A stretch of DNA of 63,428 nt, filler included, from Planctomycetota bacterium (GTDB lineage Bacteria > Planctomycetota > Planctomycetia > JALXBF01): the NCBI GenBank assembly GCA_026991575.1. It is 3 parts of 3 records of this genome, joined end to end, with 100 filler letters (N's around TTAATTAATTAA, not from the genome) between each part and the next. Parts side by side here need not be neighbours in the genome. Positions count along the whole stretch, not along the records: positions 33,184 to 63,428 come from JALXBF010000009.1; 2 more parts are not named here. One strand, written 5' to 3'. This document shows positions 42,718 to 59,309 of this stretch, piece after piece; the stretch's first letter is position 1; every line of letters begins with the position of its first letter. A model generated the notes under the pieces. The model was given only the letters and a program-made list of their open reading frames with translations, was not told the DNA's origin and did no database searches. Both the position numbers and the translations under genes were made by a program.

Positions 42718-42721
42718 CCAG

Positions 42722-43069: not shown

Positions 43070-43087
43070 GGCTTACCTCTGTGTCTT

Positions 43088-43627: not shown

Positions 43628-43636
43628 AGCGACAGC

Positions 43637-44292: not shown

Positions 44293-44794
44293 GGTCAGTT
44301 ACCTCGTACCTCACCTGTCCTTTCTCGTCGACCCACCACCGGACGCGCAGTTTAAGCGGCTGGCTTTCGACTTTCACCGCGCCGCTATTATGCGGGTGCG
44401 CAGCTTCTGTTACAGGCTCCGTAGGCGTGGTATTTTTACTCCACGCCAACACTCCAGCCGCGACTGCAGCAGCCGCCGCAAGCAACGCCACCAACCATGG
44501 CAGCACAGGTGGCGGTTGGATGTTTGCGCGCGTGTAATGGTCGGCGACGACGAGGTCGCCCATCTCACTGACTGCTCGCTGCGTCACCGGCTGCCCGTCG
44601 AACAGCACCCTGTCGTACCACGCTGCCTGGCGTGCGTTTTCCATCGCCTGCATCTCTGCCCATCCCTGGACCGTCAGTGCCTGCTGCAGCGTGTCCAGGC
44701 GGTTGCGCTGCTTGAGCACCTGCTCCGCTGCTTCCTGCTTTGGCGTCTGGAGGGGGTGGCCCAAGTACTTCCTGATAGCGCGCCACAAGCTCAT
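44282..44794 (-). CDS. single-pass membrane protein
   Basis: Coiled coil followed by a TM segment (WLVALLAAAAAVAAGVLAW). Confidence 0.7.
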   Translation of the reverse strand: MSLWRAIRKYLGHPLQTPKQEAAEQVLKQRNRLDTLQQALTVQGWAEMQAMENARQAAWYDRVLFDGQPVTQRAVSEMGDLVVADHYTRANIQPPPVLPWLVALLAAAAAVAAGVLAWSKNTTPTEPVTEAAHPHNSGAVKVESQPLKLRVRWWVDEKGQVRYEVTDHGK

Positions 44795-44879
44795 CGCGTG
44801 TACCCCCCACCAGTACCTGTCGCTGAAGCAACATACGCCACAGGTGCCGCCTGACGAGCTCCAGTACTGTCACGCGTCA

Positions 44880-45110
44880 CTAGCTCTTCGGAACGACGGT
44901 CGGTACGCCGCCCATTCCACCAGGTAGCTGAGCGCGTGCCTGGCCGCCACCGGATTCGGCGATGATGCGGTGCGTGATTCCCTCTCGCTGCGTCATCACG
45001 CCGTCCAGGTGGACAATCTTCGACCGCTCCATCAGGAACGCGTGGCTCTGGGCCTGCGAAAGGGCAACCAGCTCCAAGCCTTTGCGGACGTCTTCACCGA
45101 TCTCGGCCAT
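44880..45110 (-). CDS. small hypothetical protein
   Basis: Strong GGAGGTG RBS before ATG 45110. Confidence 0.7.
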   Translation of the reverse strand: MAEIGEDVRKGLELVALSQAQSHAFLMERSKIVHLDGVMTQREGITHRIIAESGGGQARAQLPGGMGGVPTVVPKS

Positions 45111-45369
45111 GGTCACCTCCACTTATCTCTGGCACCACGTTGATTGTAACGTCACCTCTAAGTGACTTTCTCAATGTTTCCCACGACTGCCTCAGGGCCA
45201 TTACTTCGCGCCTTAGCGCTGCCACTTCTCGCTCTAAGACATCAAGCCGCTTCTTGTCAGCACCCCCTGGCTTATCCCTGTCCAGGGGGCGCCAGGGCGC
45301 GTCGGGTGGTGCGTTGTCGCCACGGTTTTTCGAAATACCCCCGCCACGCGGAGGGTTCGTGGCGGGGGG

Positions 45370-45936
45370 TCAGGTGGGAGGCCCAATGGGTGCCGCCGCT
45401 GTAACGCTACCGCTAACTCCCCAGGCTACGCCGAGTATTTCACCTCCCGGGCCAATGACCGCAGCGCCGCTATCACCGTGACGAATCCGCCCGCGCAGCC
45501 AGAACAGGCGGAGGCAGGTGCGTTCGACCAGTCGGCCCGCATACCGGGCGGGGGTATCCGGTACCCCCACCCGGTATAGCACAGCGACGTCCACTCGCTG
45601 GCCGGCTGCGGGCCGGCACACGCGGAGGCGTCGAAAGTTGTGGGGAGGCGCCACATGGAGGTACGCGTAGTCTGCCTGCCAGTCAGATGAGCACAGCGTA
45701 GCCCTGGCGATGCAGTGCCTGTGCGCCACCACGAGAGACCTGGCACCTCTCACGACGTGGGCTGCAGTCAGGACGTGATGTGAGTCGACGAAGTATCCGG
45801 TACCTACGCTTAGCCCCCTACCGTAGTCAGCGCGCACCACACAAATACGGGCCGGGTCAACGGAGGCCAGGGCCGCTGCTGCCGATGCCGCGCAGAGGAG
45901 GAGGACGCACACCGATGAGACTGCGAGACGAGTCAT
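45370..45936 (-). CDS. secreted trypsin-like serine protease (may read through to 45094)
   Basis: Signal peptide and catalytic triad motifs TAAHV, DYA and GDSG. ATGA overlap with the upstream gene. Confidence 0.9.
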   Translation of the reverse strand: MTRLAVSSVCVLLLCAASAAAALASVDPARICVVRADYGRGLSVGTGYFVDSHHVLTAAHVVRGARSLVVAHRHCIARATLCSSDWQADYAYLHVAPPHNFRRLRVCRPAAGQRVDVAVLYRVGVPDTPARYAGRLVERTCLRLFWLRGRIRHGDSGAAVIGPGGEILGVAWGVSGSVTAAAPIGPPT

Positions 45937-46520
45937 GCAGCGGCCCATCGAATGGCCTCCTGAGTTTGCTGTCGCTTCAGGTAACCGACCGCATCGTGGC
46001 ACGTCCATACGTGCCAGTTGCGGTGCGCTGCTTTCAGCCTGCCTGATTTTACTGGCGGGTGGCTGATAAGGTCCAGTACTCCCCAGACGTTCGCCCACCT
46101 TGCAACGGTTGACGGCCTTGCAATTGGAGGCAGGGATAGCGGCACGAGTCCGCGTTCTGCGTAGACAAGAGGCGACCCAAGCGTAACCATCCTGTGAGTG
46201 CGCCTTGCAAAGTACTTGCATGCCTTATACGCGATCACTGTCCCGAGGCTGTGCGAGATGATAAGGCTTGGCGCTTTTTCGTCGCAGAGATTTGCAAGGC
46301 GCTGTGCGTCCACCGATGCAACGATGTGTCCCAGGTCTTCCAGCCACGTCGTGACGCGCTGCCACAACCTCCGCGGCTTGGCGGAACAATCCCAGGTGTA
46401 CGGCGTCACGGTAGCTCGGTGCCCAATGGCTAAGGTGATGTGTCTCAACCATGGGATCCACCAGCCATACGGTCTGGTTGTCCCCATTCCGTGAACCAGC
46501 ACAACGTGCACCGCGCACAC
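45933..46520 (-). CDS. alpha/beta hydrolase
   Basis: VLVHG, SHSLG nucleophile elbow, VTLGSP, candidate Asp (DLI) and His (CHD). Confidence 0.85.
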   Translation of the reverse strand: MCAVHVVLVHGMGTTRPYGWWIPWLRHITLAIGHRATVTPYTWDCSAKPRRLWQRVTTWLEDLGHIVASVDAQRLANLCDEKAPSLIISHSLGTVIAYKACKYFARRTHRMVTLGSPLVYAERGLVPLSLPPIARPSTVARWANVWGVLDLISHPPVKSGRLKAAHRNWHVWTCHDAVGYLKRQQTQEAIRWAAA

Positions 46521-46589
46521 CCCTTGGTGAGACCGTGGTTATGCCACACGAGTATAGGGGACGCGCGGTGCATCTGGCAACGTGGCAGG

Positions 46590-46898
46590 CTACTTCTGGA
46601 GCAGGTAAGCAAAGAGATCGAGGTCCACCACAACTAGCGGCTGTTTTCTGTCTGCCCAAAGCACGAGCATGTCCACATCTCCAGTGGTTAGCCACCTATG
46701 CAACTGTTTCCAGCCGTCTTTTCTTGCTTTTAGTTCTACGCACAGGCGTGCTTTCTCTGACTCGACGACAACGTCACACTTTGCGGTGTTAGCTGCGCCA
46801 CTCAGTGGCACTCGGGACGCTCGAAGGCCGAAGCGCTTCAGCAGACGCACCAGCTCCTGCTCACGGCGGCGCCCCTTTTCTCGCTCTCTCTTGCCCAC
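46590..46898 (-). CDS. Hjc-type Holliday junction resolvase (PD-D/ExK)
   Basis: KGRRREQEL, RVPLSGA, CDVV, VELK. Confidence 0.85.
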   Translation of the reverse strand: MGKREREKGRRREQELVRLLKRFGLRASRVPLSGAANTAKCDVVVESEKARLCVELKARKDGWKQLHRWLTTGDVDMLVLWADRKQPLVVVDLDLFAYLLQK

Positions 46899-46969
46899 GC
46901 ATCAACCTCCGTGGATATGTCACCACGCTTTACAAAGTGGCCCAGGATCGCGTTCGGCCGCCAGGCGGC

Positions 46970-47245
46970 TTACGAGTCGCCAGTGGAAGAATCGTCGCAA
47001 TCCGGGCGAATTTGTAACGCAGCAGGGTCGTCTGCGACGGCTATGACGTTCTCAAGACGCACGCACAGCCGCTCGCCCTCTGGGGTCAACACGAGGACGA
47101 AGTGTTTCGTCCTCGGCAGCGTGCTCCACTTGCCGCTGTGCCATCCAGGGTACAGCCTACTGTACACCAGTAGCACTTGGCCGATACGTTGTTTGTCTGC
47201 GTCGCGGAACTTCACCCATTTTCCCTTGGCAACTCGTGATAACAT
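46970..47245 (-). CDS. hypothetical protein
   Basis: GAGGA RBS, operon position. Confidence 0.6.
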   Translation of the reverse strand: MLSRVAKGKWVKFRDADKQRIGQVLLVYSRLYPGWHSGKWSTLPRTKHFVLVLTPEGERLCVRLENVIAVADDPAALQIRPDCDDSSTGDS

Positions 47246-47260
47246 GGGTCATCCTCTGGA

Positions 47261-47785
47261 CTAATACCGGATATTACTTTGACCGCTTATGCACATCAGG
47301 TGTGCTTGCTCGGATAGCTCCAGCTCTAGTACTTTACCCCCGCGCGCCGACGCTATCTCGCGCCATTCTGCGAGGTGTTCGCTGGTCGGCTCGAGTCCGC
47401 GAAGGTGGCACCACCAGTGAAAGCGGCAGTATGTGGGGCCACTGCCACCAACGGTGGGGGAACAAACGCCTGGCATTTGGCAGCGTCCCCACGAGCAGCG
47501 ATCGTACTCAGTGCAGCGGCGTGGTACCGGCTCACCTCGTGCCGCAGCGTACTCGCGTGCCATCCTGGCGACAGCCGCTGGATGTTGGTCCGTGCGCAGT
47601 CTGAGCCGGTCCGCACGTCGGTATAGTTCGTCGGACGCCCTGAGAGCATCTTCGAGCTCGATGGCTGCGAACAGCGCAGTGAGCCGGTCCGTGAGCGCAT
47701 CACCCCCCTCGCGAGCGTATTTGCGAAACGGTGGGAACAGCGTCGAGTGGTGCTCGATCCACTGAGCAGTCTCGCGGCGGTTCAT
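47261..47785 (-). CDS. putative helicase-loader-like protein with a Cys/His cluster
   Basis: Coupled by ATGA to the replication initiator. Helical N-terminus and C..C...C.FH cluster. Function inferred from position. Confidence 0.5.
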   Translation of the reverse strand: MNRRETAQWIEHHSTLFPPFRKYAREGGDALTDRLTALFAAIELEDALRASDELYRRADRLRLRTDQHPAAVARMAREYAAARGEPVPRRCTEYDRCSWGRCQMPGVCSPTVGGSGPTYCRFHWWCHLRGLEPTSEHLAEWREIASARGGKVLELELSEQAHLMCISGQSNIRY

Positions 47786-48768
47786 GTCGACCTCCCATTC
47801 GCGTCGCAGGTGCGCAGCTCTCCGTTCCCGCCCCCCTTGGACACCCAGCGCGCAAGCATCTCGCGCAGTTCGTCCATCTCGCTCTTTGCCTTCGGGGGAG
47901 GCTTCCGAACCAGGTGTATGTGCTTGGCCACGCACTCCGGCGTGACGACGATCTCCCAGCCCAGCCGCTCCAGCAGCTCTGGAAACTGACGCACCTCGGT
48001 GGCCGTGTATGGCGGGTTGGCAGCAAGCAATTCGCTGGCCACTCGGTGGTAGCGCTTCCAGGACCTGGCAGAGTCGTCCAGGGGCGCGACGTCACGCAGC
48101 GCCTTGACGAGCTCGCTGCGCTGCCGGATCGCCTCCGGGGATTCTGGGGGCTCGCTGCGCGGTTTCTGGGTGGGAGAGTTTTTTGCAGGCGCGCGAGGCG
48201 CCTCGCCGCGAAGCGGCGACGCGGCGCAAGCCGCGTCCGAGCGTCCTGCATCCTGCATCCTGCAGGATGCAGGAAGCGCACGTAGTGCGCTTTCTCTTCT
48301 CCTCTCCTCTCCTCTCCTCTCCTCTAGGGCGTTACGGTAACGTTTCGGTAACGTTACGGTAACGTTACGGTAACGCGGATGTAACGTTACATCAGCGTTA
48401 CACGCCTGTTCCGTAACTCCTTTGCGTGCCTTTGCCTTACGCTCTCTGTGTCGACGAACTCGCTCCCGATTTCGAGAATTTTGCCCCATGTGGCGCGCAA
48501 AGTTCGGAATCCGAATAAATCGCTTTTTGATCGAAATCCATCCAACTTTTTCCACCGCGCGCCAGAACTCAGGCGGCGTTTTGAACAGGGCGCAGAGGGT
48601 GTCCAAGTCAACCCCGCGCAGCGTCCCGTCGTCTGTCTGCGAATCGCACCAGCACCAGAACCTGACTAGCGTGCCTAGCACGTGGTCTGGGTGCAGACCC
48701 GTTGCAGCGGCGATTTTCACGATCTCTGGCTTACTTGGTGTTGTTGTATCCACCTTGATCCAGGGCAT
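47782..48768 (-). CDS. phage replication initiator (lambda O-like organisation)
   Basis: MPWIKV...KPE..., wHTH-like N-domain, RERVRRHRE helix, internal iteron array. Confidence 0.8.
   Translation of the reverse strand: MPWIKVDTTTPSKPEIVKIAAATGLHPDHVLGTLVRFWCWCDSQTDDGTLRGVDLDTLCALFKTPPEFWRAVEKVGWISIKKRFIRIPNFARHMGQNSRNRERVRRHRERKAKARKGVTEQACNADVTLHPRYRNVTVTLPKRYRNALEERRGEERRRESALRALPASCRMQDAGRSDAACAASPLRGEAPRAPAKNSPTQKPRSEPPESPEAIRQRSELVKALRDVAPLDDSARSWKRYHRVASELLAANPPYTATEVRQFPELLERLGWEIVVTPECVAKHIHLVRKPPPKAKSEMDELREMLARWVSKGGGNGELRTCDANGRST
48244..48406. repeat. iteron-like 11-bp tandem array with a CCTCT run and TCCTGCA repeats (probable origin)
   Basis: CGTTACGGTAA at 48330, 48352 and 48363, CGTTTCGGTAA at 48341, degenerate copies to about 48406. 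Confidence 0.8.
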
Positions 48769-48955
48769 GGCGTCCTCCCCTTTCTCTGCGGTACAGTTCC
48801 AGTGACTGTGGGTCTACCAACCATCCGAGCCGCGTGCGACAGCCGCGTAGGCGGCCAGCCTCGAGCAGGGCTCGGACCCACTGCACACTGCACTCTAGCT
48901 CTCGTGCGGTCTGGCCAGCGGTAAGCCAGCACTCCAGCTCGCGCAATTCGACCAT
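48731..48955 (-). CDS. excisionase-like HTH protein
   Basis: WLTAGQTARELECSVQWVRALLEAGRL...GWLV. GGAGG RBS. Confidence 0.8.
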   Translation of the reverse strand: MVELRELECWLTAGQTARELECSVQWVRALLEAGRLRGCRTRLGWLVDPQSLELYRRERGGRHALDQGGYNNTK

Positions 48956-49020
48956 GGCACGACCTCCGACAGTTGCTGCTCCACTCAGCCGGCACCCGCC
49001 CGCCGGGTGCCGGGCGACCC

Positions 49021-49050
49021 ATTGTACCGCGCGTCCAGGCGGCGCCGCAA
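49021..49050 (-). promoter_or_regulatory. sigma70-type promoter of the replication/late leftward operon
   Basis: TTGCGG-N18-TACAAT on the minus strand. Confidence 0.55.
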
Positions 49051-49057
49051 CAGGTGG

Positions 49058-49086
49058 TTGACACGCCGGGTGCCGTGCGGTAGAAT
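49058..49086 (+). promoter_or_regulatory. near-consensus sigma70 promoter
   Basis: TTGACA-N17-TAGAAT. Confidence 0.85.
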
Positions 49087-49191
49087 CGCGGCGCCATCTG
49101 CCCAGCGGCTTGGTACTCCGGGTGTCCGGGGGGCCACTAGCAGGGGGGGCACGATGTGCCCCCCTTTGGCCTCTATTTGCGGGGGAGCACC

Positions 49192-49440
49192 ATGCGCAAC
49201 GCGCACTCAGATGCTGTTGCCGCAGCGGCCACAACCCGTCAGCAGCCGGTTGAGCGATTGCTCAGCGTGACGGAGGTTGCCGTAGTACTCGGGATTAGTG
49301 AGCTAATGGTGCGCCACTACATCCGAGACGGAGAGCTACCCGTCGTACGTGTCTCCGAACGCTGTCTTCGTGTGCGCCCTGACGACCTCCGGGACTTCAT
49401 CGATCGCAGGGTAGACCGGCAGGGCAAGGACAGCGACTAG
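49192..49440 (+). CDS. excisionase-like HTH protein
   Basis: LLSVTEVAVVLGISELMVRHYIRDGELP...RVRPDDLRDFI. Confidence 0.85.
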   Translation: MRNAHSDAVAAAATTRQQPVERLLSVTEVAVVLGISELMVRHYIRDGELPVVRVSERCLRVRPDDLRDFIDRRVDRQGKDSD

Positions 49441-49482
49441 CCAACTACACGTAGCCTCGTCGCTGCCCGAGCGAGGTGGCCA

Positions 49483-49770
49483 ATGGACCGTGAGCGCATA
49501 GAACGCGTCGCGATTGCGACCGAGGCACTCGCACGTCTTATACTCGCCGAGGTTGGTAAACCACCAGCCGAATGGGTCGAGCACCTTCGCGAAGCGTGGC
49601 GCGGCTTGACCGGTGCGTGCGCTGTCGGAGCCTCTGGCGACAGTGGTTGGCTTACCTTGCTAGCTCGGAGCATACTCGTTCTTGCTGCGCAACCTGGTGG
49701 CGTCCAGGTCCTTGGACGTCAGTGGTACGTACGCGGCGGGACCCTTATAGTCAGGAGGCTGCCAGAGTGA
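49483..49770 (+). CDS. hypothetical protein
   Basis: GAGGTG RBS, GTGA overlap with the next gene. Confidence 0.65.
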   Translation: MDRERIERVAIATEALARLILAEVGKPPAEWVEHLREAWRGLTGACAVGASGDSGWLTLLARSILVLAAQPGGVQVLGRQWYVRGGTLIVRRLPE

Positions 49771-49976
49771 AAGGTCTGATAAGCAACCCACTATGGCTAC
49801 GGTGGAGCTTTCGCTTGCGCATACCGCCGCACGAACTCGTTGACATGTGGCGGCAATACCGGCGATACCACAGCCACAGAGTTCGGCTGTGTGACTTTCT
49901 CGCTGATCAGGACAGAGCACGTCGCATCATGGATGCTGTTGTTGAATCTCTCGAGAGAAAGGGGTACCTGCGATGA
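49767..49976 (+). CDS. hypothetical protein
   Basis: GGAGG RBS and GTG start, overlaps both neighbours by 4 nt. Confidence 0.6.
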   Translation: MKGLISNPLWLRWSFRLRIPPHELVDMWRQYRRYHSHRVRLCDFLADQDRARRIMDAVVESLERKGYLR

Positions 49977-50752
49977 CCTTGCCAGCGCGCCAGAATGAAT
50001 CTGGTGACATTGCCCCATCCGAACCTGCTGCTGGTGATGTGGGGACCAGCTTTGCCACGGCCAAACAGGTCGCTGAGCTCATCCGCGACGTGATCCGGCA
50101 GCAGAAACTAGCGGTGCGGATCCAGGGGCGGGACTACGTCCGCTGCGAGGGGTGGACAGCACTCGGGGCGCTCATGGGGTTGATGCCGCGCGAAGTCGAA
50201 GTCCGGCGTACTGAAACCCCCCAGGGGTACGAGGCTGTCGTGGAGGTCGTGCGCGTGGCTGACGGACGTGTTCTATCCAGAGCGTCCGCCATCTGCGCGC
50301 GCGATGAACCTCAGTGGAGGGACCGGCCGGAGTATGCGGTGCGGTCGATGGCTGTCACCAGGGCAACCAGCAAGGCGTTCCGCTTGGTGTACTCCTGGGT
50401 AATGGCCCTTGCTGGATATGAACCGACGCCGGCAGAGGAGATGGTAGATGTCGTCACGGTGCAGCCTGCCGCGAACAGCAAGGATGATAGCGACATGGGT
50501 AAACGGAGAGGTAAGAAGCCAACGCCTCAAAAGCAGTTGGCTGACGAAATTGTAAGAGTCGTGGAAAAGGCCTACCCAGAGGTGAAGGGCGACAAGAAGA
50601 AACTTCAGGAGTTGTGCAGGGGGCTTGCAAAGATTTACTGTGGCACGCCGGACGTTCGCACGCTGAGCGACGCCCGCGCTAAGGAGGTACTTGAGAACGT
50701 TCGTGACCTTTCACCTGACGCAGTACGATTGCACTTGGAGGTGCCGTTTTGA
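49973..50752 (+). CDS. single-strand annealing recombinase-like protein (RecT/Rad52 superfamily)
   Basis: YVRCEGW, SMAVTRATSKAFR, GYEPTPAEEM, and an SSB-like EVPF tail. Confidence 0.65.
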   Translation: MTLPARQNESGDIAPSEPAAGDVGTSFATAKQVAELIRDVIRQQKLAVRIQGRDYVRCEGWTALGALMGLMPREVEVRRTETPQGYEAVVEVVRVADGRVLSRASAICARDEPQWRDRPEYAVRSMAVTRATSKAFRLVYSWVMALAGYEPTPAEEMVDVVTVQPAANSKDDSDMGKRRGKKPTPQKQLADEIVRVVEKAYPEVKGDKKKLQELCRGLAKIYCGTPDVRTLSDARAKEVLENVRDLSPDAVRLHLEVPF

Positions 50753-51105
50753 TGGGACGTGGACCCCTGGTCAAGATGGTTGCGTCAAGCCTCACTAACG
50801 AGATATCAATGAAGATAGCTCAGAGATGCGATCTGCTCGCAGAAGAGCACGGCATGGATGAGCATGAGGCATGTTTATTTGCACAGGCTGTTGCTACCAC
50901 TCTCGTGTCGAAGCTTGTTTGCCTTATCGCACTTGGCTGGCACGAGATCATCGACGGCACTGAAAAGCCTGACCTAAGCGTATTATCCTGGGACGTGGTA
51001 GGAGCACTGCACGAGGTGTTAGGCCGTCACCTGGGCAGCGAGTATGCCGATAGTGTTTCGTACCACCCGTGCACGCGTGATACCGGACCAGATGTGGCTA
51101 GCTAG
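50749..51105 (+). CDS. hypothetical protein
   Basis: GGAGGTG RBS, coupled to the upstream stop. Confidence 0.6.
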   Translation: MMGRGPLVKMVASSLTNEISMKIAQRCDLLAEEHGMDEHEACLFAQAVATTLVSKLVCLIALGWHEIIDGTEKPDLSVLSWDVVGALHEVLGRHLGSEYADSVSYHPCTRDTGPDVAS

Positions 51106-51121
51106 CCATGTGTTACAGAAA

Positions 51122-51157
51122 TGGCGTGCTGCATGCGTCCGTGCGGCAGCACGCCAC
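51122..51157. terminator. hairpin between convergent operons
   Basis: TGGCGTGCTGC...GCAGCACGCCA, without a clear U tract. Confidence 0.55.
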
Positions 51158-51165
51158 TGGCTAGA

Positions 51166-51591
51166 CTAGAGTGATCGCCCCTCTGGTATATTGCCTGACT
51201 TAAGCTGATCAATGGCCCGTCGGATGTGCTCAGGCGCTTCCGACTCCAGCCTGCGTCTTAGGTTACCGGCTGGTCGGTAGCGCCAAGCATAGTAGCAGCG
51301 GTATAAGGTGCACAGAACGATTTCCTCGTCCTTCACCAGCGCGTACCAGTCCCATCCTAGTCCTTCGCGCCAGGAAGGATCTTCAACCAGGTCCTGCTCC
51401 CAACCTAGCAGCCAGATTTGCACGCCGTGGCGAGGCTCGATCCACGTCCAGATTAGGCCGGAGCCGCCGGTCGGAGCGTGAGGTACCTCTACCGGATGAG
51501 AAAGGTAATCTGCGAGGTCGTCTGGCACGCGCGGTAGTTCCCAATCGGCTATCCTGATGCACTGCTGCGGGTATAAGGCGGTGTTACTCAC
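51166..51591 (-). CDS. Trp-rich hypothetical protein
   Basis: Last gene of a tightly coupled operon, GGAG RBS. Confidence 0.65.
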   Translation of the reverse strand: MSNTALYPQQCIRIADWELPRVPDDLADYLSHPVEVPHAPTGGSGLIWTWIEPRHGVQIWLLGWEQDLVEDPSWREGLGWDWYALVKDEEIVLCTLYRCYYAWRYRPAGNLRRRLESEAPEHIRRAIDQLKSGNIPEGRSL

Positions 51592-51964
51592 GGCTTACAT
51601 CTCCGAGTCGCACGTCGTCACTGTACTCAACTACGACACGCTCGATCCGCCGAAACCTTTCGAACCGGTAAATCCGTCCGTGCTGGATGACGTGGGCGCC
51701 GTCTTCCTTATACTCGTCGACCAGCTCCATCTGTGCCCACAGGGGGCGCAGCCCACGCTGACACAGCACGGCGATAACACTGAGGGGGGCAACTACGACT
51801 AGGTCGTCGCAGCCGGATCGCCGAAAGCGTTCGACCAGGTCATCTGCAGACGCGAACGGACGCGGGTCGTGGATAATCTCGACCGGTTCGCCGGCCAGCT
51901 TTTCGAGTGCCGCTTCCTGCGCCGGCAGGTGTGGGTGACGCGACATCCAGTAGACTCTTATCAT
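51584..51964 (-). CDS. hypothetical protein, Csx15/Csx16/Csx20-like (candidate ring nuclease)
   Basis: GGAGG RBS. Pattern SRH...AQ...L..L.G, D..VVVAP...LCQRG.RPLWA and F.RFRR, recognised by eye only. Confidence 0.5.
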   Translation of the reverse strand: MIRVYWMSRHPHLPAQEAALEKLAGEPVEIIHDPRPFASADDLVERFRRSGCDDLVVVAPLSVIAVLCQRGLRPLWAQMELVDEYKEDGAHVIQHGRIYRFERFRRIERVVVEYSDDVRLGDVSRE

Positions 51965-52197
51965 GGGCGCACCTCCTCCGCAAGTGGTGGAAACCAGTGC
52001 CATCCTTCGGGCCACACCTGGAACTGGTGGCCGTCCGGCGTTTCATAACACGTCAGGTCTCTAGCTGCTTTCCATCGCACCGTGCCGCGGGGGAGTTGCA
52101 ACACAAGCTCCCCGCCCCTAATACTGGCTGGAAAGACGCTTAGCAAAGCGTCCACCTGGAGTATGTGTGAGTCGAGCAGTGGCAACCTCAGAGTCAT
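51961..52197 (-). CDS. hypothetical protein
   Basis: AGGAG RBS, ATGA overlaps on both sides. Confidence 0.65.
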   Translation of the reverse strand: MTLRLPLLDSHILQVDALLSVFPASIRGGELVLQLPRGTVRWKAARDLTCYETPDGHQFQVWPEGWHWFPPLAEEVRP

Positions 52198-53249
52198 GCC
52201 AGCTCCTCCTGCAATCTGATCAGGAACTGCCTGAATTCGTCGCAGCTTAGTACAACGTTGCAAAGTTTGATCGCATCGCCAACGCGGCCCTCTGCAGCAA
52301 GATCAACTGCGTGGCGGACCGTGTCCTCGGTAATGTCCGGCCGGAATTGCTGTGCTACGGATGTGACCACGTGGTACTGATGGTTATCTCTGATGTTCTG
52401 TGCCAGGCACATTAGCACGGACACAAGGTCGCTATCCCTTGAGATAACAGCCAACATGCGCCGAACTAACATCGCTGTCTCCTTCCAGCGTTGGTCGGCC
52501 AACTTCTCGAGCGCATCGGCTATCGCGTCCTCGTCACCGTCTGATATCGGGCCGATCAGGGAGGTGTTAATCCAGCTGTCTGCGCAGATGAGTGCCCTCT
52601 GCTCCGCAGGTGCTCTAGCTACGACCTGGGCCACGTCGCGCGGCGTGCGGACGGCGCAGCGGCATAGCGCGCCCCATGGGTCGGGCCATATCGGCCGGCC
52701 ACACTGCAGGCAAAAGTCGACTGGCATCGGCTCGACAACCCAGCATGTGGACCAGCGCACGAGCCGGTGCGCTGATACGCCCAGGGCGTCGGCGACCGCA
52801 TCGACGAAAGGCTCTGGGTCTAATACGGGGAGCTGGGCCATGCAGACGTCGTCTCGCGAAAACTCCACCGTGTCCAGCTGGCAGTGCTGCCGTGTACGCA
52901 CGGTGGCCCCGGCTACCAGCACCTCGTACGCAGTGGACTGTGGTAGATCAGTGCCAGCCGGCAGGAACACCACCGATACTGGCGTGTAGTACCACGAGCG
53001 GCCGGCCGGAAAGGAGATCAGCGGCAGACATGGCGGGGGGGCCTGGAGACGCAGCTGGTGCCACGTCCTCTCGACCCTAGATGCGTATTCTGAGGCACCC
53101 CTGGAAGTGCTGAGAACATGAATCCAGGGAGCCTCGACGGGGGGGATAAAAAGCAGCTCAGGGTTAGGACTCGACTGCAAGAACCGGTAGGCGCGGCGGA
53201 ATGCCGCTAGGTGCACGTCTGTGTAAGTGTGTGTGTGCAGCTTGCTCAT
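52194..53249 (-). CDS. hypothetical protein with a zinc ribbon (CLQC...CRC)
   Basis: 351 aa, GAGGAG RBS, ATGA overlap with the HTH gene. Confidence 0.7.
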   Translation of the reverse strand: MSKLHTHTYTDVHLAAFRRAYRFLQSSPNPELLFIPPVEAPWIHVLSTSRGASEYASRVERTWHQLRLQAPPPCLPLISFPAGRSWYYTPVSVVFLPAGTDLPQSTAYEVLVAGATVRTRQHCQLDTVEFSRDDVCMAQLPVLDPEPFVDAVADALGVSAHRLVRWSTCWVVEPMPVDFCLQCGRPIWPDPWGALCRCAVRTPRDVAQVVARAPAEQRALICADSWINTSLIGPISDGDEDAIADALEKLADQRWKETAMLVRRMLAVISRDSDLVSVLMCLAQNIRDNHQYHVVTSVAQQFRPDITEDTVRHAVDLAAEGRVGDAIKLCNVVLSCDEFRQFLIRLQEELA

Positions 53250-53470
53250 GGCTCCTCCTCTGCTGCATTGTGTTCTCGTTCTACGTGTCTAACGCTTTCC
53301 CCGCCCAGGTTCTGACGGAGCAACCTGAGCAGGGCCTGTGTCGCGGCGTTCGGCGTGGCGCGGCCGTGCAGCCAGCGCCACAGCGTGGTTCGGTGCACCC
53401 CGATGATTTTGGCCAGTTGGCCCCCACCGTGGGAGGCCACTAGCCGTCTCAGGTCGTCTCGCCAGCTCAT
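53246..53470 (-). CDS. XRE/Cro-like HTH regulator
   Basis: QLAKIIGVHRTTLWRWLHG..TP. GGAGGTG RBS. Confidence 0.85.
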   Translation of the reverse strand: MSWRDDLRRLVASHGGGQLAKIIGVHRTTLWRWLHGRATPNAATQALLRLLRQNLGGESVRHVEREHNAAEEEP

Positions 53471-53503
53471 CGTTCACCTCCGGTCCTACGGTTGGTTGCG
53501 GGC

Positions 53504-53519
53504 TGCAACATCCGTGCCA
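53504..53519 (-). promoter_or_regulatory. sigma54 promoter, leftward
   Basis: Minus strand reads TGGCAC-GGATG-TTGCA, an exact consensus match. Confidence 0.8.
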
Positions 53520-53603
53520 AAGTGGAAATACGGCTGCATCGCTGCCGCCAATAGTACAGACAGCGGTACGCTTCTCTTTGCGTTGGCGCGTGCGATACCG
53601 CAC

Positions 53604-53645
53604 AGTGTTGCAGAATGCAACAACAGTGTTGCATTCTGCAACACT
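53604..53645. promoter_or_regulatory. tandem palindromic binding sites (enhancer or operator)
   Basis: TGTTGCA-gaa-TGCAACA acag TGTTGCA-ttc-TGCAACA. The whole element is a perfect 19-bp inverted repeat with a 4-nt spacer. Confidence 0.85.
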
Positions 53646-53718
53646 CTGTCGTGATCCACGAAGCCGGGCGCTTTTCATAAGTCGCGCCGCGGACACATGT
53701 TGCGGATTTTGGTGTTTG

Positions 53719-53734
53719 TGGCACGCGGTTTGCA
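53719..53734 (+). promoter_or_regulatory. sigma54 promoter, rightward
   Basis: TGGCAC-GCGGT-TTGCA, an exact consensus match. Confidence 0.8.
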
Positions 53735-53828
53735 ATAGCATATGGGCGACGCGAAGCGATGCAGTGCCCAGGCGGACCAAGGCCAGCCGCCGAGGCCGAA
53801 GTGGGTGGCCCAGTGAGGAGGACGAGCG

Positions 53829-54386
53829 ATGCGCGAGTACGCTGTTTTCCGCCACGACGAGCTGCACGGTACCCGCTGGTACGGGTACTACGAGGCCGCG
53901 ACCCCGGAGGAGGCCGTCCGTAAGGCCCTGGCCGACGGAGACGGCCTGCCGGAGCACCTCTGGGACACCGCCTGGGCCGCCGGCCACGTGGCCGGCTACT
54001 CCGAGCCCGACCAGGAGCTGCTGGAGCGCTGCTGGACCGACGATCCAGGTGCGCACTGGGTACTCGTGGACGGTACCAGTTACGTGGCGCTGGAGACTAG
54101 GGTCACGGTCCTACTGGACGCCCGCCGAGACCTCTACGAGGCGGGCAAGTGCACGTGCGACGAGTGTGTAGCTGCCTTCGCGCGTGCTTACGAGGCGGCG
54201 GCTCGCCGTCTCGAGGAAGAGCGCGGGCTCGAGATTCGGGTGGTCCATGGACGTTACGACGGACTACCCCCAACCGGCTACCAGCCCAGCGAATTTGAGC
54301 GCTGGGTCTGGCAGGAGCTGCACTACGCTGTAGATGACGTCGAGTGCCCTGGTTGCGACGACCCGGACTGTCCAGACGCAGTTTAG
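53829..54386 (+). CDS. acidic hypothetical protein with Cys clusters
   Basis: GAGGAGG RBS, CTCDEC and CPGCDDPDC clusters. Confidence 0.75.
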   Translation: MREYAVFRHDELHGTRWYGYYEAATPEEAVRKALADGDGLPEHLWDTAWAAGHVAGYSEPDQELLERCWTDDPGAHWVLVDGTSYVALETRVTVLLDARRDLYEAGKCTCDECVAAFARAYEAAARRLEEERGLEIRVVHGRYDGLPPTGYQPSEFERWVWQELHYAVDDVECPGCDDPDCPDAV

Positions 54387-54397
54387 GGGGGAGTCTG

Positions 54398-54658
54398 ATG
54401 CGCCGATGTCCAATTGCAGAGTACTACCTCGATTACGCCACCGACGAGTACTTGGCCGGCAGGCGCCCTGAGACGCCAGCCACGTGGCTGGATGGTGTCA
54501 GGGCCAAGAGGTGGACGTTCAGATACAGGTTCACCATGCGACGATGGCTAGCCGATGCGCTAGCCGAGGGGGTAATAGTGCCCGTCGAATCGAAAGGTGG
54601 TCGCACTGCGTACGTGTGGGCGTCCGCAGTGGACAGAAAGGACGAGGAAGACTCATAG
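54398..54658 (+). CDS. hypothetical protein
   Basis: GGGAG RBS, followed by a terminator. Confidence 0.65.
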   Translation: MRRCPIAEYYLDYATDEYLAGRRPETPATWLDGVRAKRWTFRYRFTMRRWLADALAEGVIVPVESKGGRTAYVWASAVDRKDEEDS

Positions 54659-54685
54659 GACGTAGCGCTGGGATCCTCCTCACTG

Positions 54686-54721
54686 GCCCCCGCCCGGAGA
54701 CACCGCCGGGCGGGGGTTTTT
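54686..54721 (+). terminator. intrinsic terminator
   Basis: CCCCCGCCCGG...CCGGGCGGGGG followed by TTTTT. Confidence 0.85.
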
Positions 54722-54731
54722 CGTGCGCGCA

Positions 54732-55016
54732 TCAGCCCCCCCTGGCCGTGATCCGAGAGTGGCACGAGTGGCATAGAGCCTGCAGGTTCTCGAGCGTGTT
54801 CTCCCCGCCCTCTCTGAGCGGAACCCTGTGATGTACGTCCTTGGCTGGCGCCCCGCACAGCTCGCAGAACGGTCGCTGAGCTAACACGACAGCACGCAGT
54901 CTCCACCACCTACGGCCGTACCCCCTGCGATGGGCGCTTGGACGCTGGGGGGCGCCGCGATGCTGCTTACGCGCTGGTACCCGGGGGGGTTTGTGCTGTC
55001 GCGGCAGCTTCGCCAT
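54732..55016 (-). CDS. HNH endonuclease (HK97 gp74-like)
   Basis: RRGYGRRW, CELC, VHHRVP, NLQALCHSCH. Confidence 0.92.
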   Translation of the reverse strand: MAKLPRQHKPPRVPARKQHRGAPQRPSAHRRGYGRRWWRLRAVVLAQRPFCELCGAPAKDVHHRVPLREGGENTLENLQALCHSCHSRITARGG

Positions 55017-56178
55017 CGGCAGGCTCCACAGGGTTGATCAGAGACCCGATCACGCGAGCAAACTCACTGTTGTTGCGCCGCATAAGCCTTTCAGCTGACT
55101 GACGCGACACGTCGCACGCGACGTCGTATCGCGCGTCGATTGTTCGGAGCGCAGCGGCCATGTCCTCAACAGAGTGTGGGGGGGCAGTAAATGCGCTAAG
55201 CTCCATGCAGTCAGACACGATACTTGGGATGCCCTGCAATGCAGCCTCTATAGCGACGTAGCCGAAGCTCTCTTCGAGAGAAACCTGCATAACAGCGTCA
55301 AGCTCAGTCCGAATGCGCCTTACAAACCTGTGCCATGGCATTGCAGGCCACGTTTCTACTCGTACGCCGCGTGCGCTAAGGTACCTTGCCACGTGAGCAC
55401 ACGACTCCAGCACCACTGGTACGTGTCCAGCCGCTGCAACAGCGAGGCACTGTCGCAGCATGTTTTTGACAACCGCGCTTCGGCACAGAACGCCGACTTT
55501 CATCGGCGTTTGCTTGTTCCACTTCTCACGCGCGCGCAACCCTGGAATCGGGTTTGGTATGTGAAGCCACCCCATGCAATCCGCAATTCTGGCACTCGGT
55601 GTCGCACAAACAGAGTGCTCCTCGTACGCAGCAAGGCGATTCATAAGCGACGCGTTCGTTGCAATGTCGGCAAGGCAGCTGTGTATAAGCGTCACTACGA
55701 CGATGCCACGATTGGAAAGGTCCCTAACGGTGTCTGCGCCTAGAACGGCTGCGTGGTTTACTACAACGCGTGGCATGCATAGCGTCAGCACGGGGTCTAG
55801 ATCGGATAGGCGTCGCACGCCCTGGACATACCGAGCACGGACTCCAGCCCGGGCCACGACAGCACATGCGGTAGGCCCGTATCTGTGCGCCCAGTGGCTT
55901 CCGCTAGTTGCTGGCAGAACAAACAGCACGTCGCATGGCCCAGGCTTTGGCCACACGTAAGCGCGGCCAACACGCCGCTGGCTTCGGATGACACGACGCG
56001 CCCCCTCTGCCCTGGCGTAGTCTGGGCATTCCGCGCAGCAGCGTATGCCGGGGACAGGTTTGGCAAGCGTGCAAGAGCCGTGGATGTCGCACTGAAAGAC
56101 TTTCAGCCGAACGCGCCCTTTGCACGACCCACATTGAGCGAAACCTATCAGATCTCCGAGGTAAACACAATCCGTCAC
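54967..56178 (-). CDS. GT-B (GT4-like) glycosyltransferase with an N-terminal Cys-rich domain
   Basis: KNM and ESFGYVAIEAALQGIP (E-X7-E) motifs. N-terminal CGSC...CDIHGSC...CCAEC. Confidence 0.8.
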   Translation of the reverse strand: MTDCVYLGDLIGFAQCGSCKGRVRLKVFQCDIHGSCTLAKPVPGIRCCAECPDYARAEGARRVIRSQRRVGRAYVWPKPGPCDVLFVLPATSGSHWAHRYGPTACAVVARAGVRARYVQGVRRLSDLDPVLTLCMPRVVVNHAAVLGADTVRDLSNRGIVVVTLIHSCLADIATNASLMNRLAAYEEHSVCATPSARIADCMGWLHIPNPIPGLRAREKWNKQTPMKVGVLCRSAVVKNMLRQCLAVAAAGHVPVVLESCAHVARYLSARGVRVETWPAMPWHRFVRRIRTELDAVMQVSLEESFGYVAIEAALQGIPSIVSDCMELSAFTAPPHSVEDMAAALRTIDARYDVACDVSRQSAERLMRRNNSEFARVIGSLINPVEPADGEAAATAQTPPGTSA

Positions 56179-57686
56179 GTTATAGCTCCCCCACTGCTGC
56201 CCTCGATCCAGCAAGCAAGCGGTGGACCAAGCCGAGCATTGGCGTGGTGGCGGAAGTACACACGCCCTTCGTCACCTGTGATGGGTGACGTCGTCGGAAC
56301 CGGCCCCCCTTGATACTCAAGCATCAGGCGCGGTATGAACAACACGGCGATTGCATTTTTGTTTTGGTTTGCTGGCTTCCACTGCAGTGCTGCAGTATCA
56401 GTTGTCGACCACTCAATGTAAGAGTTTGGTGGTGTTCGTCCGTTCCACCATTGGCTTGGCCCGAACGTGGTCAGTCGGTAGTAATCCCAGTCCGTGCGAA
56501 GAGAGTCAACGAACCGCTTATGCCACTTCGCCGGGAGGTCGATCTCGTTGCTAGGTATGTACGCTGCGAGAAGGATTACATCGATGTCTTGCGTCATTTG
56601 TGACGGGATTTCTGATGCTGCCTCAACATACGTGTCAACCGATGCTTGAAACAGCCTTGACCTCTCGTGACACTTGCCGTACCAAACCGACTCGAACCCC
56701 CAGCAGCGGCACGACACAGGGGCTCCGTCGTGGCATTGGTTGGTAAGCACCCCAAAACCGTCTTCGTCGAGCTGGTAGCATGTCCGTGGCGTCCATGTTT
56801 CACCAATCAGTGGGTTTTGAAACTCAACATGCCACGGTCCTGGATACCTGAACGTTTCTTCTTTCAGCCAGCGTTTGGCAAAGCGCACGACGATCTTTCT
56901 GGCACCAAAGTCCCAAAGGGAATTGCCAGCGCCAACGTACCACGCCGTTCCAATCGCGCCCATTCCGAAGTTGATAGAAGCATTTGTGAAAATGTGGCAA
57001 AACTCGAAGTTAAAGCGTTCGCGAAAGTCATCCCAACGCCACGCGCCCCAGAAATGGTAGTAGATGTCTGGAAAGGTGCCTGCAAAGCTGGTCCAGTAAG
57101 CATCAGCTGGGTAACCGATGTCAGAGATTCCTGCAGGCAGGTCTAGATCGACGTCTGCGACGCCGATGACGTAGTACTTAACACGATCGACATACCGCTT
57201 ACCAGTCCCGTTCTTGATCGTGTAACCTGCGACTGCGTACCGAATCGGGTTGATGTTACCGCTTACGCAGTCTTCAGACAGTGGTGGGAAACCGAAGAGA
57301 GCACCTGAAGACAGACATGCACCACAAGGAAGCTCTGAGTATGCGAGGCGGCTCATGCCCCACTGTGCATCACCGCGCCCGCCAGGTACGACTTCGAGGT
57401 ACTGCTCGGAACCTGGCGGGCCAAACCACTCAGAATAGGCCGCATTCGCGTTCTGCGAAGCAGTACTCCACCACTCTGCGAGGTATGTAACGTCGTCGTA
57501 GCCAAGAATCTTGCCTTTTTCGTCGTAGTCCCCAAAGCAAGGGTGTTTGCAGTCGCCCTCGAATGGATTGGGACCACCCTTGCAATATCTCGCGACACAT
57601 TTCGCAGCACGAAAGTTTGCAACGAACGACACGATCTGTGGTGGTGGTTTCCTGCAGCAGCTGTCACACGGCCCATACCTGCCCAT
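56175..57686 (-). CDS. putative tail-tip/structural protein, aromatic- and Cys-rich
   Basis: Lies in the tail operon, MGRYGPCDSCC N-terminus, translationally coupled. Confidence 0.65.
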   Translation of the reverse strand: MGRYGPCDSCCRKPPPQIVSFVANFRAAKCVARYCKGGPNPFEGDCKHPCFGDYDEKGKILGYDDVTYLAEWWSTASQNANAAYSEWFGPPGSEQYLEVVPGGRGDAQWGMSRLAYSELPCGACLSSGALFGFPPLSEDCVSGNINPIRYAVAGYTIKNGTGKRYVDRVKYYVIGVADVDLDLPAGISDIGYPADAYWTSFAGTFPDIYYHFWGAWRWDDFRERFNFEFCHIFTNASINFGMGAIGTAWYVGAGNSLWDFGARKIVVRFAKRWLKEETFRYPGPWHVEFQNPLIGETWTPRTCYQLDEDGFGVLTNQCHDGAPVSCRCWGFESVWYGKCHERSRLFQASVDTYVEAASEIPSQMTQDIDVILLAAYIPSNEIDLPAKWHKRFVDSLRTDWDYYRLTTFGPSQWWNGRTPPNSYIEWSTTDTAALQWKPANQNKNAIAVLFIPRLMLEYQGGPVPTTSPITGDEGRVYFRHHANARLGPPLACWIEGSSGGAIT

Positions 57687-58027
57687 CAGCACTCCGCAGC
57701 TATCGGAAAGTAAATGGCATTCCCCTGGTCATCCCTGTGGCTTGGTGCTAACACCACACGTTTTCCGTTTGCTATGTCCCAGCCAAGATGATCTACTACC
57801 TTGACGATGCTACCGACGGCTGTCACGCTTCCTCCTTGCGTGTCTAGAACCTCAGCGTCGACAGGTGTGGTCGCATAGGCCGAAAGGTCAGCCTTGAGCT
57901 GCGCAAGGATCAGCGTATCTGCAAATGACCTGGCAGCTCCTTGCCCACTCTCGCCGCCTGTCTTGAGTACCCTGACGACTGCCTTTGCAATCGACTTAGC
58001 TGACTCCTTGTCGAAGACAACCGCCAT
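57686..58027 (-). CDS. putative minor tail protein
   Basis: GGAGG RBS, tail operon position. Confidence 0.65.
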   Translation of the reverse strand: MAVVFDKESAKSIAKAVVRVLKTGGESGQGAARSFADTLILAQLKADLSAYATTPVDAEVLDTQGGSVTAVGSIVKVVDHLGWDIANGKRVVLAPSHRDDQGNAIYFPIAAEC

Positions 58028-58028
58028 A

Positions 58029-58415
58029 TCACGCCTCCAGGACGAACGCCCATACCTTACACGGGGCATTGTTAGAACGCAGCGCAAGCGAAGCACCGGG
58101 CTCTGCCCTGAAGATGCACACCTCGAGCGGGTTCAGCCTCGCGAACGTGTAGACGGTGCCGCCTCCAGCGTCGTAGCCTACTTCGACGTAGTTCGTGCTG
58201 TCCAGGTTTTTCAGGGCTACCACCCCCTGGTTAGAAGCAGCTATGTCGCCCAGCGGCAGGGCTGTCCAGGCCGTATTGGAAACCTCCAAGACTGTCTCGG
58301 TACGCTTGTCGCCGGCCTGGGTGATATCCAGCTTCGTAACTGCACGATCAGGAAAGACGCCGTAAGTGCCGTTTTTTGAGTGCTCAACCTGAAGCAGAAT
58401 GCTGATATCAGGCAT
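58029..58415 (-). CDS. putative minor structural protein (beta-rich)
   Basis: GAGG RBS, KNLDSTNYVEVG, tail operon position. Confidence 0.65.
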   Translation of the reverse strand: MPDISILLQVEHSKNGTYGVFPDRAVTKLDITQAGDKRTETVLEVSNTAWTALPLGDIAASNQGVVALKNLDSTNYVEVGYDAGGGTVYTFARLNPLEVCIFRAEPGASLALRSNNAPCKVWAFVLEA

Positions 58416-58424
58416 CGTTGTACC

Positions 58425-59294
58425 TCACAGTAAACCTAGCCCGCTGAATGGCAATCTGCGGTATACCCGGAAGACACGCCACACTGTTGCGCTAGGCGGC
58501 GCGTTATCGGGCAGGGCATCGCCCGACCCGTTTAGGCGCACATCGTGCTGTACCGGCTTTCCGTGTGCATCGACAATTGGCACTTTCGAGCCGCCTGAGA
58601 GCCTGTAGCGACCCTGGTCCACGACGATCACGTCCCATCCTTCAGGCTGAGGGTCCCCCGGAGCTATGTTAAGGCCGGACGGCGTAGGCCGGCCTTCCAT
58701 TTCAACCTCCACCTCCCACCACTCATAGCCCTTGTCTTCGTCCCGCCGCTTTTGCGCGGAGATCCGCATGATCTTGAGCTCACCTGGCGCAAAGCCAAGG
58801 AAGCCGTCGCTGTTAACTGCGTCCTTATACTGCAGAGCAAGTGGAAAGTTGAAGTACAGAAAGTTGCGCCGAATCACAATGGACGGCCTTGAATCGTCGA
58901 TCTCTACCGGATCGCTGAAAGGATCGCCGGCCGAGTTGGAAATCGGCTTACCGGTAATGTCGTAAGCAATCGCGCGCGTCGATCTAGAAAATGTGATCGA
59001 CACTTCCGGCGGTTTCAGGGCAGGATGGTCATACAGCTGCTTGCCAGCATCCGTCGAGTATCGCGCCTCGACTTCCCATAGCTCTGGTTCCCCCTCAATC
59101 TGGCGAACGGATAGCTCTGCAAGCAGTGCACCGCGGTAGTCAGGGTGAGCAGTTCCAGGTCTCGGTATGCCAGGGGCCTGTTCGATCTGAGAAATAGACG
59201 TGCCTGCAGCTGCCTTGACCCGCCAGCGGCGGGTTAGCTCAACACCCTCGTTCGAGCGTTCCAGTGTGCGTGCGAGGATCTCGTATACTTCCAT
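58425..59294 (-). CDS. putative distal tail/hub protein
   Basis: Directly follows the tape measure gene. HP.Y and NSAGDPF motifs. Confidence 0.65.
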   Translation of the reverse strand: MEVYEILARTLERSNEGVELTRRWRVKAAAGTSISQIEQAPGIPRPGTAHPDYRGALLAELSVRQIEGEPELWEVEARYSTDAGKQLYDHPALKPPEVSITFSRSTRAIAYDITGKPISNSAGDPFSDPVEIDDSRPSIVIRRNFLYFNFPLALQYKDAVNSDGFLGFAPGELKIMRISAQKRRDEDKGYEWWEVEVEMEGRPTPSGLNIAPGDPQPEGWDVIVVDQGRYRLSGGSKVPIVDAHGKPVQHDVRLNGSGDALPDNAPPSATVWRVFRVYRRLPFSGLGLL

Positions 59295-59309
59295 CGAACC
59301 ACCTGGCGC

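Follow-up and report, generated by a model that had tools for sequence, protein, structure and literature searches.

A phage gene from a protein family remotely related to the ring nuclease Csx20

We analysed P0001, a small gene carried by a tailed phage, in a window of 63,428 nucleotides (the whole stretch of DNA under study, which joins three contigs of the Planctomycetota bacterium assembly GCA_026991575.1). Our results show that this gene, which encodes a protein of about 14 kDa, is real and conserved, and that its product belongs to a large family that is unnamed in any library. Profile comparisons indicate that the resemblance of this family to Csx20 (MJ1673 family), a stand-alone ring nuclease of type III CRISPR loci that breaks down the alarm molecule of this immunity, is a real, remote homology, and the family is most fittingly seen as a new sister of Csx20. 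Whether a cell is killed or spared by type III CRISPR signalling depends on ring nucleases, and viral copies of them are anti-CRISPRs. The protein is plausibly a binder of cyclic oligoadenylate (cOA) or a ring nuclease, used as an anti-defence gene. Among the readings that we weighed, an anti-CRISPR mechanism of this kind, by ring nuclease or by sponge, appears to be the single most likely one, and it is put forward tentatively.

Csx20 and Csx16 are reported to be proven ring nucleases of cyclic tetra-adenylate (cA4), with copies in phage genomes (Hoikkala et al., bioRxiv 10.1101/2024.09.24.614671), and phage csx20 genes lying in Aca-regulated operons have been proposed to serve counter-defence (NAR 2026, PMC13551039). 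Some Csx15 proteins are described as non-enzymatic sponges (Chi et al., Biochem J 2026 / bioRxiv 10.64898/2026.01.21.700848), in a work that counts eight extrinsic ring-nuclease families so far, and Crn4 is the subject of Chi et al. (PMC12830947).

A conserved gene and its remote homology to Csx20

Translation of positions 51584-51964 on the minus strand yields the protein of 126 amino acids (aa) that a preliminary description, made by eye, had read there, with MIRVYWMSRH at its beginning, PAQEAALEKLAGEPVEII, DDLVVVAPLSVIAVLCQRGLRPLWA and YRFERFRRI all in place. The ATG at 51964 is the right start, since the Shine-Dalgarno-like GGAGGAGGTG, a strong ribosome-binding site, lies upstream of it and the family alignment begins at the same residue. 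A longer open reading frame (ORF) from a GTG at 52015 was considered as the true start and was ruled out by the Shine-Dalgarno site and the common N-terminus of the family. The features that are needed here are the following, with positions counted along the whole window:

33184..63428 (no strand): contig C9, a tailed-phage genome of 30,245 bp that carries the target gene (from Pfam, PHROGs and the terminal overlap)
51584..51964 (minus strand): target gene P0001, 126 codons plus stop, a divergent Csx20-like small alpha/beta protein (from translation, conservation, AlphaFold2 (AF2) and hhalign)
51970..51979 (minus strand): Shine-Dalgarno-like GGAGGAGGTG, five bases upstream of the ATG at 51964 (read from the sequence)

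A word-indexed search returned 64 proteins matching the target at E<=1e-3, and an exhaustive search of cluster representatives (clusters at 50% identity) returned 375 at the same threshold, 172 of them at E<=1e-10. In an alignment of 44 sequences W6, S8, H10, Q16, L20, R46, V56, V58, A59, P60, V63, L75, F101 and R106 are invariant; when the alignment is extended to 79 sequences with more distant members, P60 is still invariant and W6, S8, Q16, L20, P74, F101 and R106 are kept at 90% or more. Tandem duplications of 218-305 aa account for 26 of the best 150 representatives, the second copy being degenerate in some of them. A tblastn search of 50,697 deposited phage records and 72,556 plasmids gave no family match, so that this family does not include the phage copies of Csx20 and Csx16 in the count of Hoikkala et al. 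The 26 nearest clusters in the ESM Atlas are unnamed, the three displayed being 44-65% viral; the one neighbour there that bears a name is the Csx20 family, PF27247, at a score (0.78) that is rated as a lead only. A profile search of PDB sequences yielded chance matches only (E 0.43 and 1.1), and no description of the family was found in the literature searched on ring nucleases, anti-CRISPRs and the association of MoxR, VWA and Csx3.

To compare the family with Csx20 we used a bona fide reference from the same phylum, found by searching 401 genomes with the model NF040559; this protein (locus L003) scores 121.8 bits and its gene adjoins cas1. Together with 23 relatives, several of them named Csx20 by NCBI and all of them matching PF27247, it makes a set of 24 proteins, 20 of which were aligned. 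Comparison of this alignment with that of the 44 family sequences by hhalign gave 89.2% (E 2.2e-6), and the more diverse alignment of 79 sequences gave 95.5% (E 1.6e-8) over 106 collinear columns, pairing family residues 1-108 with Csx20 residues 1-126, that is, the whole domain from end to end. Reversed profiles served as a control and reached E 0.036, while the best of 30 column-shuffled Csx20 alignments reached E 0.028, with a score of 17.9 against 52.7 for the real alignment. Weak HMMER matches are reciprocal between the family and Csx20 and stand above the genome-wide background: the hidden Markov model (HMM) of the family gives Csx20 proteins 14-24 bits (the 12 best matches of a 25-sequence set), and when it was run on the 60,050 six-frame ORFs of the host genome no non-self match exceeded 10.8 bits.

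Conserved Csx20 positions find a counterpart in the target at H10, Q16, L20 and G25 (in the FG that follows helix 1), along the D-x-V-V strand, in RGL-PL and in F-R-R at the end, H10 and Q16 being those kept among the near-invariant positions of Csx20. The two proteins are also similar in size (126 aa for the target and 117-159 aa for the aligned Csx20 proteins), in the order of their structural elements and in the predicted homodimer, and Csx20 genes, like the target, occur in phages. In contrast, the invariant W6, S8, R46 and APLS belong to the target family and not to Csx20, and the C-terminal hairpin of the target is shorter.

The preliminary description had likened the protein to Csx15, Csx16 and Csx20 together, and this likeness holds for Csx20 and is marginal for Csx16. 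The latter, a cA4-specific ring nuclease (PF09652, Cas_VVA1548 / TIGR02620), resembles the target to the eye in the S-R-H that comes after an N-terminal strand and in a stretch D-x-V-I-G-T-L-P...A..VC.RG that recalls DDLVVVAPLSVIAVLCQRG in the target. When the family was compared by hhalign with six Csx16 sequences (one copy from the phylum and five annotated plasmid copies), the match was not significant (E 0.0065, 5.8%, 58 columns), with the S-R-H and V-x-G/A-x-L/P...C-x-R-G stretches aligned; for scale, Csx20 against Csx16 gives E 0.057, and the family against single Csx16 sequences E 0.065-0.093. The C-terminal halves do not align, there is no HMM match, and a metagenome scan for Csx16 relatives found none. 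As for Csx15, general library scans gave no match at E<=10, no comparison aimed at it being made.

Predicted fold and homodimer

The AF2 model of the target is of high confidence (predicted local distance difference test, pLDDT, 94.3; predicted template modelling score, pTM, 0.82) and opens with a beta strand, as had been read from the sequence. Its elements are a strand (residues 2-7), a helix (14-24), a strand (28-33), a helix (40-50), a strand (54-57) and a helix (61-69), followed by three C-terminal strands (75-82, 91-94 and 97-106). Csx20 has a CARF-like fold in which helices flank a sheet of five strands and a long hairpin forms the C-terminal part. The model of Csx20 (pLDDT 93.0) has the same order of elements as that of the target, and the residue numbers of strand 1, helix 1 and strand 2 coincide in the two; it differs by one extra helix and much longer C-terminal strands and hairpin.

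Proteins of the CARF superfamily have a Rossmann-like core, ligand loops after strands 1 and 4, and a dimer that holds its ligand on the two-fold axis. The target has in common with Crn1 and other CARF proteins (for example Sso2081 and the CARF domain of Cam1) a predicted Rossmann-like alpha/beta sandwich, a predicted dimer and conserved loops, which in the target follow strands 1 and 3 of the core. The best PDB match found by Foldseek is the cA4-bound CARF domain of Cam1, but at E 6.5e-3 and with a template modelling (TM) score of 0.28 only, and there is no sequence-level match to CARF proteins. Because no PDB match stands out, be it from Foldseek or from VIA-align, neither a CARF fold nor a novel one can be claimed from these searches. 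The predicted fold is Rossmann-like, as the preliminary description expected, and structure searches do not single it out as CARF-like. Among viral models in BFVD, the unnamed A0A120L048 (144 aa) matches with a Foldseek E of 6.6e-6 and a TM of 0.66, and three more proteins (128-133 aa) match at about 2e-3; these may be cultured-phage relatives of the target family, or of Csx20 or Csx16.

Prediction of a homodimer gave a score of 0.55 (0.53-0.61 between runs), compared with 0.00 for the best control. The 0.55 mark is reached by 20 of 30 proteins that were solved as pairs and by 1 of 23 solved as single chains, counts that hold only roughly here because a custom alignment was used. Contacts agree between runs at 85% or more, with a partner pLDDT of at least 86, and the predicted interface consists of an antiparallel pairing of residues 104-115 together with the loops at 60-62 and 71-75. 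Since a homodimer is predicted and tandem fusions of two copies exist in nature, a dimer is likely to be the working unit of the family.

The phage contig, its operon and the binned host

The window is made of contigs C7 (1-2719), C8 (2820-33083) and C9 (33184-63428), and the joints at 2720-2819 and 33084-33183 are runs of N around TTAATTAATTAA, across which features are not to be read. C9 has a terminal direct overlap of 127 bp and was hence circularly assembled. According to Pfam and PHROGs, it encodes an HK97-type capsid, a prohead protease, a portal and the large terminase TerL between 33.7 and 39.2 kb, then, between 59 and 63.4 kb, a head-tail connector, tail completion protein, tail chaperones and tape measure, and besides these a replication initiator, an MT-A70 methylase, an SNase, a Hjc-like resolvase and an HNH protein. 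C9 is thus a complete or near-complete genome of a tailed phage. Pfam gave no match to a Cas family for any of the 46 ORFs that were scanned from 33722 to 63428, which are phage genes; the earlier statement that no cas genes lie nearby therefore holds for this contig. No tRNA was found on C9. Adjoining the replication module, at 45370-46520 on the minus strand, overlapping ORFs match a trypsin-like peptidase (Trypsin_2) and an alpha/beta-hydrolase, which is unusual for a small siphophage.

The target gene stands in a run of minus-strand genes, given here from the head of the run downstream:

53246..53470 (minus strand): 74-aa helix-turn-helix (HTH) gene, Cro/Aca-like, the operon head (weak HTH_31 and HTH_3 Pfam matches, E 0.0015-0.006)
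52194..53249 (minus strand): 351-aa ORF of no assigned function, the second operon gene (library matches none better than E 0.02)
51961..52263 (minus strand): 100-aa ORF of no assigned function, upstream of the target (no match in Pfam, PHROGs or PADLOC)
51166..51591 (minus strand): 141-aa ORF of no assigned function, downstream of the target, its GTG start overlapping the target 3′ end by 8 bases (no library match)

The target lies between the last two of these, and a divergent plus-strand gene stands opposite. The TGA of the 100-aa ORF overlaps the ATG of the target (ATGA), which indicates translational coupling of the two genes. The run from the HTH gene to the 141-aa ORF has the look of a single early operon. 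Of the neighbours of the target in it, only the HTH gene has library matches, and the 351-aa ORF found nothing useful in the ESM Atlas (top score 0.77, unnamed). A scan for sigma-70 promoters and terminators between 50900 and 54100 returned 2 and 2 sites, where 0.8 and 1.5 were expected, none of them usefully placed.

The phage was binned with a metagenome-assembled genome (MAG) of 4.96 Mb that is 97.8% complete. The preliminary description had pointed to the host bin as the place in which to look for a type III CRISPR system, and this MAG indeed carries a Cas10/Cmr2 (178.6 bits, contig C183, loci L006/L008) with its YAGGDD intact, a CARF-HEPN effector and four CRISPR arrays. The effector is a 529-aa Csx1 (TIGR02221, E 1.4e-16) encoded on contig C45 (L001, 1459-3048, minus strand), the C-terminal 125 residues of which match Csx20 weakly (25.2 bits), and it is a possible self-limiting effector, or ring-nuclease fusion. 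A word-indexed search gave no relatives of this fusion of near length, and its Csx20-like domain found nothing when used as a query. A whole-genome search of the MAG with NF040559 recovered the host Csx1 fusion only and not the target, and an hhalign comparison of the family with the Csx20-like domain of the host, as a single sequence, is uninformative (E 0.088). The arrays, on contigs C47, C96, C182 and C187, have a common 37-nt repeat and 47 spacers, which average 45% in GC content where the genome has 64%. One of the spacers (C96, offset 30684) has a 22-base match with 1 mismatch to contig C37 of the same MAG. BLAST found no DNA in common between the phage contig and the other contigs of the MAG, and hence no att site or integrated copy.

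Candidate roles of the family

The model that we propose is built on the gene, its conservation, its remote homology to Csx20, the class of its fold and a supported homodimer prediction. The gene would be expressed early, from the HTH-headed operon of the phage, and its product would be a homodimeric alpha/beta protein of about 115 residues, Rossmann-like and CARF-related, from a sister family of the ring nuclease Csx20. The dimer would bind the cOA produced by Cas10 of the type III CRISPR system of the host, with cA4 as a first guess, in a putative pocket formed by the loops after strand 1 (S8-R9-H10) and strand 3 (A59-P60-L61-S62), and would either cleave this signal in a metal-free manner or only sequester it. 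CARF effectors such as the host-type Csx1 would thereby be kept off, and the protein would act as an anti-CRISPR. The proposed role is like that of AcrIII-1/Crn2 (DUF1874), the viral ring-nuclease anti-CRISPR, in that a small viral protein would remove cA4, but the fold family of AcrIII-1 is a different one, and the target has no Pfam match to DUF1874 at E<=10, which is consistent with the earlier view that the two are distinct.

Genomic neighbourhoods were compared in 22 related loci, 6 of them viral contigs (IMG/VR) and 16 from species-representative genomes (Patescibacteria-group MAGs, Chloroflexota, two gammaproteobacterial MAGs and three archaeal MAGs); these loci are samples, since both scans used one narrow peptide pattern. 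Neighbouring proteins were scanned with Pfam (141 within about 2.6 kb and 107 further) and PHROGs (120). In 4 of the 22 loci the family gene has beside it Csx3, of the Crn3 ring-nuclease family, or Csx3-AAA, which we count in favour of the proposed model, as we do the type III components of the MAG. The neighbours in question, which are not homologous to the target, are Csx3 or the AAA half of Csx3-AAA in L020, L021 and L027, and in L031 by BLAST likeness; the Csx3-AAA of L021 matches PADLOC PDLC01045 at E 3e-62.

A number of results weigh against this role, and we gather them here, beginning with the sequence. The target has no match at E<=10 in Pfam, NCBIfam, PHROGs or PADLOC and so falls short of the curated Csx20 cut-off (NF040559, 70 bits), and this model touches only 1 of 44 family members, at E 0.08. 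In the 20-sequence alignment of Csx20, 13 columns are invariant (E19, L20, W40, W60, Q73, G74, G77, T98, E104, E109, F117, H119 and F122), of which only two, L20 and F122, are found in the target, next to an aromatic residue in the place of F117. The target is also without the insert of about 15 residues that bears W40 and W60, and without T98, R100, E104, E109 and H119, and the invariant QGExG loop of Csx20 is replaced in the target family by the equally invariant APLS. The exchange of this loop and the loss of H119, T98, E104 and E109 would fit a protein that binds cOA as a pure sponge and has no ring-nuclease activity, as some Csx15 do, such non-enzymatic sponges having been reported to exist (10.64898/2026.01.21.700848). 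The invariant S8 and H10, with the mostly conserved R9 between them, speak against this explanation, as they could constitute a plausible metal-independent catalytic set, and we regard a pure sponge as improbable.

The same direction is taken by the structural comparisons. Among the 50 best PDB neighbours listed by VIA-align, CARF or SAVED proteins number 20 for the Csx20 model and none for the target, the neighbours of which are generic Rossmann-like folds. The target is thus structurally more generic than Csx20, which counts against simple membership in Csx20. One could suppose that only an ancient ancestry at the level of the fold is shared with Csx20, and that the protein does a job unrelated to cyclic nucleotides, for instance as a small regulatory, scaffolding or replication-associated early phage protein. 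Such an explanation has to contend with a profile match to Csx20 that runs from end to end, with the repeated co-location of the gene with Csx3 or Csx3-AAA and an HD hydrolase, and with the position of the conserved polar residues S8, H10, Q16, R46, S62 and R106, which cluster at the C-terminal ends of strands 1 and 3, the place of ligand binding in Rossmann-like and CARF proteins; we consider it rather unlikely.

The proposed anti-CRISPR role is also affected by the relation between the phage and the MAG. None of the 47 spacers of the MAG matches the phage contig beyond 14 bases. In composition the phage contig stands apart from the bin: it is the outlier among 45 contigs of similar size, with a tetranucleotide correlation (r) of 0.897 against a median of 0.992, and its GC content is 59.7%, compared with 64.2% for the bin. 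Without a spacer match and with such a composition, the phage is tied to this host only by binning.

Finally, Csx20 sits in or beside type III loci, whereas the scanned stretches of the 22 loci of the family carry no cas gene apart from the four cases of Csx3 or Csx3-AAA. What is found instead, in 10 of the 22 loci, is a conserved cluster in which a MoxR ATPase, a VWA protein and/or a large protein stand beside the family gene. The bpMoxR ATPase and/or VWA protein is present in nine loci (L015, L020, L021, L023, L024, L025, L027, L031 and L032), the VWA protein of the cluster, of about 570 aa, being 48-61% identical between loci. Seven loci (L020, L021, L023, L024, L026, L027 and L031) encode a 505-890-aa protein of no assigned function that is 27-49% identical between loci and has no Pfam (E<=0.5), PADLOC or PDB sequence match, and L020 and L021 have in addition an HD_4/phrog_990 hydrolase. 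The genes of the cluster are tightly packed on the same strand, in loci from several lineages with GC contents from 38 to 67%. Housekeeping genes (DNA Pol I, elongation factor P, CTP synthase and arginyl-tRNA synthetase) lie within 5-8 kb of the cluster, which indicates that these loci are chromosomal islands rather than prophages. No Cas10 over the cut-off was found with either TIGR02577 or TIGR02578 in the five cluster-bearing genomes searched, the completeness of which is not established, and a single partial match of 33 bits was seen. In the viral contigs, the family gene is mostly alone among unassigned genes, with an integrase, RecT/exonuclease or terminase/portal nearby. A particular case among them is L015 (IMGVR_UViG_3300038379_000133), a viral contig of 67% GC, where the family gene occurs with an integrase, a reverse transcriptase, MoxR, a VWA-like protein, a ChlI-like Mg-chelatase ATPase and an SNF2 helicase.

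These loci bring in a serious rival, namely that the protein serves as an accessory subunit in a cellular system that works independently of Cas10 and consists of MoxR, VWA and the large protein, which Csx3-AAA and an HD phosphohydrolase often accompany. The ligand would then be a different one, for example RNA or oligonucleotides ending in a 2′,3′-cyclic phosphate, or a signal from the large protein, and the phage copy would mimic or jam this system instead of type III CRISPR. The spread of the cluster over several lineages, the lack of a Cas10 over the cut-off in the five genomes searched and the chromosomal setting all favour this view, and MoxR-vWA ternary conflict systems that include a Csx3 effector domain have already been described (Kaur et al., eLife 2020, PMC7159879). 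On the other hand, the 46 scanned ORFs of the phage contig include no MoxR or VWA gene, the cluster is absent from 12 of the 22 loci, among them 5 of the 6 viral contigs, and the genomes searched for Cas10 are small MAGs. Moreover, the partner Csx3 is itself of a cA4 ring-nuclease family, and hence the cluster may still handle cOA. We judge this rival possible, if on the unlikely side.

Taken together, the loss of most residues that are invariant in Csx20 and the presence of relatives in genomes with MoxR-VWA clusters and no Cas10 over the cut-off weaken the reading of the protein as a ring nuclease or sponge, which is nevertheless the one that we prefer. Since HMM score, invariant residues and CRISPR context all set the family apart from Csx20, we place it beside Csx20 as a sister family. 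A further and quite doubtful idea is that MoxR, VWA, the 505-890-aa protein, Csx3-AAA, the HD hydrolase and the Csx20-like protein make up a defence or conflict system of Patescibacteria and other small-genome lineages that is as yet undescribed and does not depend on Cas10, that the family is its signal-handling subunit (a sensor or an off-switch), and that phages such as the present one captured this small subunit as a stand-alone counter-defence gene. If this were true, CARF-like relatives of ring nucleases would work outside CRISPR in lineages that are thought to be CRISPR-poor.

The family is a sister of one of the eight extrinsic families and has a remodelled putative binding loop. If its members bind or cut cOA, they would be a family of viral counter-defence proteins that is widespread and escapes present surveys with HMMs. 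If they do not, their partnership with Csx3-AAA, HD, MoxR and VWA proteins in genomes with no detectable Cas10 would point to a non-CRISPR use of CARF-like proteins.

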